Shown here: piece by piece, positions 1,419-3,848 of the stretch
How the letters are laid out: each line of letters begins with the position of its first letter
Position numbering within the stretch: position 1 is the first letter of the stretch
The notes under the pieces: generated by a model
Seen by the model: only the letters and a program-made list of their open reading frames with translations
Told to the model about the DNA's origin: nothing
The model's database searches: none
Position numbers and translations under genes: made by a program
Origin: a virus
Taxonomy: Duplodnaviria; Heunggongvirae; Uroviricota; Caudoviricetes
Virus record (IMG/VR): IMGVR_UViG_2703718808_000018
Coordinates: 1-12,452 of that record
Strand: one strand, 5' to 3'
DNA: 12,452 bases

Positions 1419-3848
1419 TTAAAAATCAGCCTGACTCGGGATCAGTTTTTGCCAGATAGCTGAAACGTATTTTGCCTGGTAACGCGCATCGTGCAGGGCA
1501 TTATGGCGCTCACCCTCAAATGTGATGACACTTCGAGCATCGAAATCCATCACCAGTCCCATAGCAACCATCGTTCTTACATCGCGATCATTGGTGTAAC
1601 GCCATGGGCAGGGGATCCCCTGCCGTTCATATGAACGGCGTAAAATTACGTTGTCAAAGTTGGCTCCATTTCCCCAGACCTGAACAAAAAATTCACCGGA
1701 GTTTTCGTCGATAAATTCCCGTAATTGCAACAGTGCGTCATCCAACGGGATTTCATCGGTCAGAATGGCTGATTGTGCTTCCCGTGACTGTTTCAGCCAC
1801 CACTTAATGGTGTCCCGATCGATGACTCCGCCCGCGGTTTCCAGATCGATAGTTTTGCTGAATTCTGGCCCCATCTCTCCGGTTGCCGGATCAAAAAACT
1901 TACCGGCCAGAGCGTTTATTGGCGCATCAGGATTTTTGCCCATTGTTTCAAGGTCAATCATCAGATGGTGCCACAACCTGCTGGTGGATGTGCTTTTGTG
2001 ATGACCGTTCACCTTAATTAAGGGATTTGCTGTCTCGCCTGTTTCATTATTGCCATTGGCATGTTGATCGCCTTCGGTGCACTCCTTGTTCGGGTATACG
2101 GCACTTTCCATTTCCTCTGGATCTTTCTCCCGGGCTTCATCCTGGCTTTCTTCGTTGAATGTTTCCTGGTATGTTGCGTCGCCCATTACCGCGCCACAGT
2201 CAGGACAGTTGCCGTCGCCGGTCTGACCGCAGGCGGTGCAGACTTTTTCCGGTTCTTGTTGCTCTTCTGGTTCAGGCTGTTTCGTTTCTGGCTCGTTTTG
2301 TTCCGATTCGGGCTGGTTCTGGTTCACAGAATCGTGGGTTTCAATCCCCTTAACCCATTTCGGATCATTCGGGTCGCTAATCCCTTCAACAAACTCACCA
2401 CGTGATGCAGCAAGCAATTTATCGGCGTCAGGCTGGCTGATATTGGCTGCCTGCATAATTTTGTTTACTTCGTCAGCGGTAACTTTTACCGGCTCTGGTT
2501 GTTCTGAATGTTCAGATATATCTGTATTTTGCGGTAAGCCCGTGTATGTGCCGTTTTTGCGGGCAAAATATTCTTCTTTCGTGATTTCAGTAGCCCCGGC
2601 AGCCAGCGCCTTGTCCAGACCAGAAAGTTTGTTTGCGCGACCGTATTTTTCCCTGTCCTTATCGGTAAAGACGAAATAAAAAGGCCCTTCACGCTCTACA
2701 GATGGTTCAGCTTCCACCAGGATTTCATTTTTTTGAGAATTGGATTCCGCCGTCTCCACTGGATCAGTTTGTTCTGCTGACAGGAGGAGAGCATCAGCAG
2801 GGCTCTGGTCTGTTTCTTCATGTTCAAATACGCCCTTTGTAGTCAGGTATTCAGTGATGTATTTGTTCAGCGCCACGGGATCTTTATGAATGTCGATCGG
2901 ACGTTCACGAACAAGGCCGAAAATAGTCTGACGGCTGTATAGAAGTGCATCAGGTTGTTTGCGCATTGATGCAGAGATACGTTTCCAGTCTTCGCGATCC
3001 TTGTCGATAACTTCATTTTTTGCCCAGCGATGGATGCTGCAGTCAATGTTTCCGGCATCAATATCACCAGGCCAGAGAGCGTAAGCCAGCTCTTCATCCA
3101 GTGTTTTCCATGTATGCCTGTATTCGCGACGAATGGCAGCAGTGACAGAGTTGATTTTTGCTGCTGAGTTTTTAGTGTGCTGTTGGTTGACTCTGGCGAG
3201 GGCCAGATCAACAACAGACGTATATTTTCCGGTTTCCTTGCGTTCACCTTCGCGACGTTTTTTCCAGATGCGCATCTCTGCCTGAATTTCTGGCCATTTG
3301 GCACCAGGCTTACATTTATGCTTAACCCACCCGATGGCATGCAGTTTAATCTCCGGATACATGGCGTTAACTTCAGGCATTTTCATCAACGCTTCAACGA
3401 TATGTCCGTCGAATGTTGCCATGTCTTCCTGCAACAATTCCTGTGCGCTAATCACCATATCAACGGTGATGTTTTCACATGTATCGAACTTAACCATGAC
3501 AGCGTTCTGTACTTCAGGGGACAGCTTGTCAAAAGTGACGTTCATCGGATCTGATTCAGTCTCAACCGGGACAAAGGAAGCAGACGCCTCATCCCAGCGG
3601 TTTTCCAGCATATATTCAGCATCCCAGGAGTCGAGGGCTGGGCGGGGTGTACCGGGTTTATCCTCACAGACAAGAAATTTATAAGCGCAGTCCTGAGCAG
3701 CCGGATAATGTTCAAGGAATTGCCAGTGAAATTTTGCGCGGGCGCGACGTTCATCACCGGCTTCAATGGCAGTGGCCACAGCAACAGCGCCCTCGTTTTT
3801 TATTGCCTGTTCGTCAGGAATGGCGGCGCAAATAAATATTTTACTCAT
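1419..3848 (-). CDS. Large phage exonuclease (of the kind annotated exodeoxyribonuclease VIII in relatives) with C-terminal DEDDh 3'-5' exonuclease domain
   Basis: 809-aa ORF with ATG at 3848 and an upstream TGAGG. The C-terminal ~200 aa carries DnaQ-like motifs: MIDLETMG (Exo I), GNGANFD (Exo II) and HNALHD (Exo III, H-x4-D). The central region is a strongly acidic, low-complexity linker containing CTACGQTGDGNCPDCG (CxxC-x7-CxxC, zinc-ribbon-like). It sits in the position of the exo/recE gene of lambdoid prophages. Confidence 0.85.
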   Translation of the reverse strand: MSKIFICAAIPDEQAIKNEGAVAVATAIEAGDERRARAKFHWQFLEHYPAAQDCAYKFLVCEDKPGTPRPALDSWDAEYMLENRWDEASASFVPVETESDPMNVTFDKLSPEVQNAVMVKFDTCENITVDMVISAQELLQEDMATFDGHIVEALMKMPEVNAMYPEIKLHAIGWVKHKCKPGAKWPEIQAEMRIWKKRREGERKETGKYTSVVDLALARVNQQHTKNSAAKINSVTAAIRREYRHTWKTLDEELAYALWPGDIDAGNIDCSIHRWAKNEVIDKDREDWKRISASMRKQPDALLYSRQTIFGLVRERPIDIHKDPVALNKYITEYLTTKGVFEHEETDQSPADALLLSAEQTDPVETAESNSQKNEILVEAEPSVEREGPFYFVFTDKDREKYGRANKLSGLDKALAAGATEITKEEYFARKNGTYTGLPQNTDISEHSEQPEPVKVTADEVNKIMQAANISQPDADKLLAASRGEFVEGISDPNDPKWVKGIETHDSVNQNQPESEQNEPETKQPEPEEQQEPEKVCTACGQTGDGNCPDCGAVMGDATYQETFNEESQDEAREKDPEEMESAVYPNKECTEGDQHANGNNETGETANPLIKVNGHHKSTSTSRLWHHLMIDLETMGKNPDAPINALAGKFFDPATGEMGPEFSKTIDLETAGGVIDRDTIKWWLKQSREAQSAILTDEIPLDDALLQLREFIDENSGEFFVQVWGNGANFDNVILRRSYERQGIPCPWRYTNDRDVRTMVAMGLVMDFDARSVITFEGERHNALHDARYQAKYVSAIWQKLIPSQADF

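Follow-up and report, generated by a model that had tools for sequence, protein, structure and literature searches.

The gene on the minus strand at 1419..3848 of a 12,452-bp stretch of viral DNA (IMG/VR record IMGVR_UViG_2703718808_000018; the whole stretch is referred to below as the window) encodes an 809-amino-acid (aa) protein that, judged from its sequence, is a mosaic in which a scaffold of the RecE/YdfE family carries a different nuclease "warhead," a DEDDh 3'-5' exonuclease domain. The gene is the sole recombination (Rec) module gene of the Stx2c prophage to which the window belongs, and this prophage is rich in Chi sites on its top strand. The reading that we favor, with a probability of roughly one half, makes the protein an accessory for the processing of 3' DNA ends, encoded by a phage that uses the host RecBCD-Chi-RecA pathway.

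The open reading frame (ORF) is complete, with an ATG start, and its product is identical to RefSeq WP_062865829.1, which is labeled "exonuclease"; identical proteins are found on 171 contigs. The full-length match of the protein among the PHROG families is PHROG 2082, and its precomputed Pfam matches are the N-terminal families YdfE_N (PF27430) and YdfE_C (PF27432), along with Rv2179c-like. The window matches NZ_CP024289.1 (Escherichia coli O178:H19 strain 2012C-4431) at 1837356-1849807 on the reverse strand with 100% identity. It makes up the left arm of an Stx2c-converting lambdoid prophage, 45.7 kb long, whose insertion site lies between potB and potC. An original prediction, made from the window alone, had described an exonuclease with a DEDDh domain, a zinc-ribbon motif in an acidic linker, and no adjacent annealing-protein gene. 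Its facts on the DEDDh domain, the motif, and the annealase stood; its interpretation missed that the protein is a RecE-family chimera with homology to YdfE and Rac RecE.

The C-terminal domain matches a DEDDh exonuclease family

The C-terminal domain (aa 627-799; 1452..1970, minus strand) matches Pfam family PF16473 (Rv2179c-like) over the entire model (positions 1-177 of 177), with an E value of 1.4e-60 and a score of 204.4 bits against a cut-off of 27. The catalytic set is complete, consisting of D632 and E634 (in DLE), D732 (in NGANFDN), and H782 and D787 (in HNALHD). No match to the lambda Exo nuclease or to the RecE nuclease was found in the protein. Domain searches of the kind that the original prediction had proposed thus place the C terminus in a nuclease family, and its assignment of a DnaQ-like DEDDh domain rather than a lambda Exo-type fold was borne out by the sequence.

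The DEDDh catalytic residues are kept in eight of nine diverse homologous domains. In P0253 (752 aa), a DEDDh fusion from the representative search, DLE is changed to DLK and FDN to FAN; the loss of these two catalytic acidic residues suggests an inactive or repurposed variant. When searched as a single sequence, the domain matched T4 DexA with an E value of 5e-5. A profile of the nine domains compared with all PDB sequences retrieved only T4 DexA (8KEL/8KEN; E value of 3e-16), and no other chain was found at an E value of ≤0.01. The nearest characterized relative is therefore a DNA exonuclease, and we infer that the substrate of the DEDDh domain would be DNA and not RNA. Beyond the domain, the protein ends in an acidic, F-terminated tail (...SQADF; 1422-1436, minus strand), which is conserved only in Escherichia-type fusions and resembles the acidic Phe-terminated tip of single-stranded DNA-binding protein (SSB).

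The exonuclease domain sits on a RecE/YdfE scaffold

The first 257 residues of the protein are 90% identical (BLASTP) to YdfE, the product of a pseudogene in the K-12 Qin prophage. Within this region lies an N-terminal alpha/beta and helical domain (aa 1-205; 3234..3848, minus strand) that AlphaFold2 models with a predicted local distance difference test (pLDDT) score of about 88; no significant structural match for the N-terminal scaffold was found. It is followed by a helical middle domain (aa 245-343; 2820..3116, minus strand), which is a distant homologue of RecE 294-351 and conserved throughout the scaffold family, and by a small beta-hairpin/helix domain (aa 388-435; 2544..2687, minus strand) with the motif GPFY...RANK...EItkEEY. 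The small domain is absent from Rac RecE and is present in 15 of 57 long scaffold relatives that were scanned. Counted among these 57 are the window protein itself, Rac RecE, the RecE homologue of Gifsy-2, and the protein of Citrobacter phage Chris1.

Homology to Rac RecE extends over aa 262-611 (BLASTP E value of 2e-59). The NCBIfam RecE model NF007259 aligns with aa 219-611 (model positions 243-602 of 877) at 272.5 bits, against an equivalog cut-off of 1269. The homology is strongest in a patch at the mosaic junction (aa 474-611; 2017..2424, minus strand), which shares 80.4% nucleotide identity with Rac recE (blastn) and, as protein, 69.6% identity with RecE 454-591 in a gapless alignment (blastp). 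The patch ends exactly where the PD-(D/E)XK nuclease of RecE starts, and from there on the protein consists of the DEDDh domain; neither PF06630 nor PF12684 matches it, and nothing in it matches RecE 592-866.

A HMMER search with aa 1-620 over 1.84 billion representatives returned only 234 clusters, indicating that the scaffold family is narrow. A follow-up profile search had its 120 best matches in Pantoea, Enterobacter, Salmonella, Yokenella, and Erwinia. Among the 57 scanned relatives, the nuclease was Exonuc_VIII (the RecE nuclease, PF06630) in 25, the PDDEXK-like DUF3799 in 14, and DEDDh in 10; one was a RecT fusion, and several had no recognizable nuclease. YdfE-like and Rac-like N termini were each found with both nuclease types, as in P0137, which combines a Rac-type N terminus with a DEDDh domain. 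By this comparison, nuclease domains are swapped on one RecE/YdfE scaffold. A scan of one genome per GTDB species yielded 80 loci, nearly all in Enterobacterales, with 23 large fusions (641 to 851 aa) and 54 stand-alone forms (182 to 257 aa).

Other members of the scaffold family carry no nuclease that could be recognized. P0179 (703 aa) joins a Rac-type RecE N terminus and linker directly to RecT with no nuclease domain between them; either it has arisen by in-frame deletion or it is a naturally occurring fusion of scaffold and annealase. YdfE_N scaffold proteins of 754 to 786 aa with no recognizable nuclease are encoded in Pantoea (L169, 6001-8921) and Salmonella (L170, 6001-8816); in both, the scaffold gene is followed by a Sipho_Gp157 family gene, and the early regions contain no top-strand Chi site. 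Another scaffold protein with no recognized nuclease is only 621 aa long. "RecE-2" proteins that lack a nuclease domain are mentioned in PMC12315714.

A zinc motif lies within an acidic linker

The region before the exonuclease domain is an acidic, low-complexity linker (aa ~500-611; 2016..2351, minus strand) with a net charge of -9 to -10 per 40 residues. Inside it lies the CxxC-x7-CxxC zinc-knuckle motif CTACGQTGDGNCPDC (aa 537-551; 2196..2240, minus strand), a putative zinc site that the original prediction had located correctly, at around 2188-2241. A four-Cys motif of this kind arose in 84 of 200,000 shuffles of the protein (P of ~4e-4). The Pfam zinc-ribbon profiles DZR (PF12773) and zinc_ribbon_3 (PF13248) gave nonsignificant E values of 0.14 and 0.93, respectively. 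Rac RecE has CxxC-x7-CxxC with the same spacing, and the motif is included in the gapless alignment of the junction patch. It was present in 8 of the 57 scaffold relatives and in 3 of the 23 species-level DEDDh fusions, all three of the Escherichia type. The zinc motif is thus a lineage-specific trait of the linker patch that the protein has in common with Rac RecE, and it does not define the family.

No RecT, Bet, or Erf annealase accompanies the gene in a Chi-rich prophage

Searches by tblastn with RecT (Rac and Gifsy-2), lambda Bet, and Erf found no annealase in the 42-kb locus or in the 45.7-kb prophage at an E value of ≤0.1, and none was found in PHROG scans of the other window ORFs or in the RefSeq annotation. 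The original prediction had noted that no RecT/Bet-like gene lies near the exonuclease gene; a search of the rest of the prophage, as it had suggested, found no recT or bet homologue, and the same holds for the DEDDh fusion architecture as a rule, with RecT, Bet, or Erf found within ~8 kb of the fusion in 0 of the 23 species-level loci. Gam, Abc2, SSB, lambda Exo, and a RecE-type nuclease were likewise not found in the prophage, the anti-RecBCD panel consisting of Gam and Abc2 only. The two-component SynExo recombinases pair a 5'-3' exonuclease with an annealing protein from the same module; none of the RecT, Bet, or Erf type was found in the prophage. In the 23 fusion loci, the early-left operon is conserved and minimal, consisting of cI, a few small ORFs, an Rrf2-like regulator, exo, xis, and int, which leaves no space for an annealase of normal size.

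In the prophage (45,658 bp), Chi occurs 13 times on the top strand versus 2 times on the bottom strand, where ~1.25 sites would be expected per strand, and it ties for the most frequent octamer. Six of the sites lie on the top strand of the window (starting at 164, 1980, 3935, 7502, 11274, and 12212) and none on its bottom strand. The site at 1980..1987 (plus strand; GCTGGTGG) is inside the exonuclease gene in the antisense orientation. The site at 3935 falls within the 95-bp spacer just upstream of the exonuclease start codon, in a hairpin-like sequence (3933-3954). Across the early regions of the 23 fusion loci, there were 76 top-strand versus 17 bottom-strand sites (4.0 versus 0.9 per 10 kb), with at least one top-strand site in each. 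The DEDDh form of the scaffold is thus always found with no annealase and with many oriented Chi sites. That Chi richness is tied to the scaffold itself was considered and rejected, since scaffolds lacking the DEDDh domain (Rac, Pantoea, Salmonella, and Enterobacter) had 0 top-strand Chi sites whereas DEDDh fusions had 3 to 6, these being small numbers.

According to PMC12315714 (Genome Res 2025), Chi sites in the correct orientation abound in phages that lack an anti-RecBCD function, and RecBCD helps such phages. Table 1 of that paper lists a "Tritos" type (class B) that has a nuclease but no single-strand annealing protein (SAP), SSB, or anti-RecBCD function, with 7 to 21 top-strand Chi sites. 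Since the Stx2c prophage has a Chi-rich top strand and a lone nuclease, with no annealase, SSB, Gam, or Abc2, it agrees with the Tritos type in every respect that can be assessed from sequence. The exonuclease gene is therefore not a new type; it belongs to an abundant, annotated class that was already catalogued in 2025, that of the Tritos-type nuclease-only Rec module.

Distribution of the gene and of stand-alone forms

The gene is among the most common of E. coli prophage genes. Of 5426 complete E. coli genomes, 3471 (64%) contained it with a coverage of ≥80%, in up to 10 places per genome. It is often multicopy and is found in Shiga toxin (Stx) phages. The ORF is also intact in plaque-forming phages, namely, Tritos (84.7% identity), Citrobacter phage Chris1, and an Stx2a phage. 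A scan of viral contigs with the RecE nuclease domain, intended as a RecET control, retrieved only Rac copies of 99 to 100% identity and so was not used.

The stand-alone form of the DEDDh domain occurs in a different setting. In phage mEpX2 and its relatives, a 182-aa form lies inside an annotated Erf-SSB-exo-Abc2 module. Among the scanned stand-alone loci, Erf and SSB were found directly upstream of the exonuclease gene in three and SSB alone in four more, and stand-alone loci that adjoin Erf or SSB had 0 to 1 Chi site. The neighbors of the stand-alone genes (L018-L087) also include DUF2303 (YfdQ-like; 16 loci), a 187-aa protein with no Pfam match (cluster 6; 17 loci), and RdgC (8 loci), which points to a recurrent set of early-operon genes unlike the classical Rec modules.

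A possible role at 3' DNA ends

If the protein is a 3'-end accessory to host recombination, pL would transcribe its gene after induction, jointly with dicB and ydfD, and host RecBCD, Chi, and RecA would serve the recombination-dependent replication and concatemer formation of the phage. The exonuclease would remove 3' single-stranded tails or trim 3' DNA ends, for example, giving blunt ends for RecBCD loading, and the YdfE/RecE-type scaffold would target or regulate the exonuclease domain. RecBCD is said to require near-blunt ends, which host single-stranded DNA exonucleases reportedly supply (Thoms & Wackernagel 1998; Dermic 2006). In the protein, the DEDDh domain occupies the place that in Rac RecE belongs to the PD-(D/E)XK 5'-3' nuclease. 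Because RecT reportedly binds this C-terminal nuclease domain of RecE (Muyrers et al. 2000), the joint loss of the domain and of recT would be coherent. We infer 3'-end trimming as the relevant activity and cooperation with RecBCD as the context in which it would act.

Several points weigh against this reading. As described in PMC12315714, the usual effect of DnaQ-type enzymes with 3'-5' exonuclease activity (ExoI and ExoX, for instance) is to inhibit homologous recombination, since RecA depends on the 3' tails that they remove. Phages that are poor in Chi and have complete Rec modules carry the same DEDDh domain too, and its role is therefore not specific to RecBCD-dependent phages. Taken together, these two points suggest that the DEDDh domain may have a more general 3'-end function. 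An RNA substrate is also conceivable, as the name of the Pfam family comes from an exoribonuclease. For aa 460-809, AlphaFold2 with a shallow alignment of 16 close homologues gave a mean pLDDT of 35, so the DEDDh fold is assigned by sequence homology to DexA. The search panel for annealases consisted of RecT/Bet plus Erf; for the Sak, Sak4, and gp2.5 types, gene order and annotation give only indirect grounds for exclusion. Finally, our literature search found no functional study of the 809-aa protein and no biochemical or genetic data on it or on Tritos gp27.

A broader and distinctly more speculative proposal is that the YdfE/RecE scaffold is a general targeting platform for exchanged warheads (PD-(D/E)XK with RecT, DEDDh, or none) and that the DEDDh version is a dedicated RecBCD helper, blunting 3'-tailed phage DNA ends, onto which RecBCD could then load and from which it could travel to the oriented Chi sites. 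If so, it would represent a third phage recombination strategy, between bringing one's own recombinase and using that of the host unaided, and the long-unexplained N-terminal two-thirds of RecE would gain a testable function.

Other roles were weighed against the same evidence. Two of them follow from the kinship with DexA. In an HREX-type antiphage defense, the domain would degrade the 5-hydroxymethylcytosine (5hmC) DNA of superinfecting T-even phages, and a bacterial DexA homologue, the stand-alone E. coli protein EcD, is described in PMC12153337 as digesting T4 DNA and protecting against T4. In an alignment anchored by the NDRDVRT motif, DexA D169 is conserved as D768, whereas W152, which is needed for 5hmC recognition according to PMC12153337, corresponds to T752 and is not conserved. 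The 809-aa fusion, moreover, lies in a repressed early-left operon, and no sigma-70-like promoter was found directly before the gene. PADLOC gave no match for the exonuclease or its three neighbors, and 23 of 23 homologous fusions occupy the Rec-module position between cI and xis-int and not defense islands, all of which makes a defense role improbable. We give about as little credence to nucleotide scavenging, the documented role of DexA in T4 (PMC12153337), in which nicked or broken host DNA would be converted to mononucleotides for phage DNA synthesis. Intact catalytic residues and a place in the early operon would suit such a role. However, temperate lambdoid phages are not known for degradation of the host chromosome, no endonuclease partner is encoded nearby, and scavenging would leave both the fusion to a RecE-type scaffold and the link to Chi richness unexplained.

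RNA-processing and antidefense readings are less supported than a role at DNA ends. As a 3'-5' exoribonuclease, the protein would trim or degrade RNAs such as the small RNAs (sRNAs) of the dicF-dicB operon, primers, or host transcripts. The Pfam family takes its name from the Mycobacterium tuberculosis exoribonuclease Rv2179c, and many NCBI records bear the label "3'-5' exoribonuclease," which derives from that family name; this label and "exodeoxyribonuclease VIII" are probably both misleading. The PDB profile search matched only the DNase DexA, the stand-alone form is flanked by SSB and Abc2 in DNA recombination modules, and RecE, which is a DNA exonuclease, is built on the same scaffold, so that we consider an exoribonuclease unlikely. 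An antidefense nuclease that destroys a host immune molecule, for example, retron multicopy single-stranded DNA (msDNA) or signaling nucleotides with a 3'-OH, is no easier to credit: an early phage gene for a 3'-5' exonuclease with a scaffold that has no significant structural match would suit it only in a generic way, no homology to known antidefense proteins was found, and the fixed Rec-module locus and the correlation with Chi point to DNA recombination or replication. That the gene is left over from a RecET module in decay and no longer has a function is very unlikely. The K-12 copy is only a ydfE pseudogene truncated by IS2, and P0253 has lost catalytic residues, but full-length copies in most complete E. 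coli genomes, intact ORFs in plaque-forming phages, and catalytic residues invariant in eight of nine diverse domains all argue against decay.

If a 3'-5' exonuclease does aid RecBCD-dependent replication, this would bear on the multiplication of Stx phages after induction and on the apparent paradox of DnaQ-type nucleases that suppress recombination. The N-terminal part of RecE is in any case a reusable scaffold, able to carry a nuclease of opposite polarity.

Neighboring features of the window

On the minus strand, dicB is followed by a ydfD-like DUF1482 gene, the exonuclease gene, xis, and int, and the order dicB-ydfD-ydfE is the same as that in K-12 Qin. Upstream of the exonuclease gene and in the same leftward operon are the ydfD-like gene (3944-4132, minus strand) and dicB (4129-4317, minus strand). 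The excisionase gene xis (1088..1357, minus strand) lies directly downstream, with ~60 bp between it and the exonuclease stop codon and no recT between the two genes, and the integrase gene (1..1119, minus strand; RefSeq annotation) follows. To the right of the early-left operon, the window contains the immunity region, replication genes, and a hok/sok locus.

A DicF-like sRNA region upstream of dicB (4440-4530, minus strand) differs from K-12 dicF. The 5' sequence TTTCTGGTGA is retained, the internal stem is shortened or replaced (with a 17-nucleotide gap), and a GGCGGAAATGGATATCCGCC hairpin is followed by a T run. Rfam gave no DicF match at the gathering score in this region, the only match being a subthreshold one to STnc100 (4285-4502, minus strand; 33 versus 47 bits). 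A relBE toxin-antitoxin pair (5970-6448, minus strand) adjoins a repressor-like helix-turn-helix gene (6476-6877); the K-12 Qin prophage has relBE as well, there beside a hok family gene (hokD). The O-like (DnaT-like) and P-like replication ORFs (7730-9221, plus strand) overlap by 8 bp, and the two together match a single 482-residue PHROG profile (phrog_15931), indicating that they form a single fused protein in some phages. The nin-like region contains a sok antisense RNA (Rfam RF01794, 113 bits; 11349-11673, plus strand) that overlaps a Hok/Gef toxin gene. A second Hok/Gef gene of the same prophage is annotated near the tail fiber genes (L172, 24524-24664).

Comparison with known systems

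T4 DexA, the sole solved relative found by sequence, shares the DEDDh motifs of the window protein. It is a stand-alone protein of 227 aa with extra loops and low identity, and its W152 is T752 here. The stand-alone DnaQ-like exonucleases of lambdoid phages (mEpX2 gp31 and, in PMC12315714, the epsilon34 DnaQ) are also encoded in the early-left operon near recombination genes, and the identity of the stand-alone enzyme to the C-terminal domain of the window protein is 52.5%. They differ in being ~182 to 200 aa long with no scaffold, and some lie in Erf-SSB-exo-Abc2 modules of Chi-poor phages.

K-12 YdfE matches the window protein over its first 257 residues and has the same dicB-ydfD neighbors. 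In contrast to the window protein, it is truncated by IS2, with everything after aa ~257 gone, so the full architecture is invisible in the K-12 reference strain. Rac RecE has a homologous scaffold and linker and occupies the same place in the leftward operon, upstream of xis-int. Its PD-(D/E)XK 5'-3' nuclease (PF06630) is replaced here by the unrelated DEDDh 3'-5' domain, recT is missing, and the first 257 aa are of the YdfE type rather than the Rac type.

The closest system is that of phage Tritos, whose gp27 is 84.7% identical to the window protein over its full length. Both have the order dicF-dicB-ydfD-exo-xis-int, and the Tritos module, like that of the Stx2c prophage, has no annealase, SSB, or anti-RecBCD gene and many top-strand Chi sites. 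The two proteins differ in length (823 aa in Tritos versus 809 aa here) and by a few local substitutions in the DEDDh domain, and the Stx2c prophage is located at potB/potC. The main text of PMC12315714 describes neither the domain chimerism nor a test of function. What the present analysis adds to this known class is an explicit demonstration that nuclease domains are swapped on the RecE/YdfE scaffold, the lineage-specific nature of the zinc motif, and the finding that the absence of an annealase and richness in Chi go together in 23 of 23 species-level fusions.

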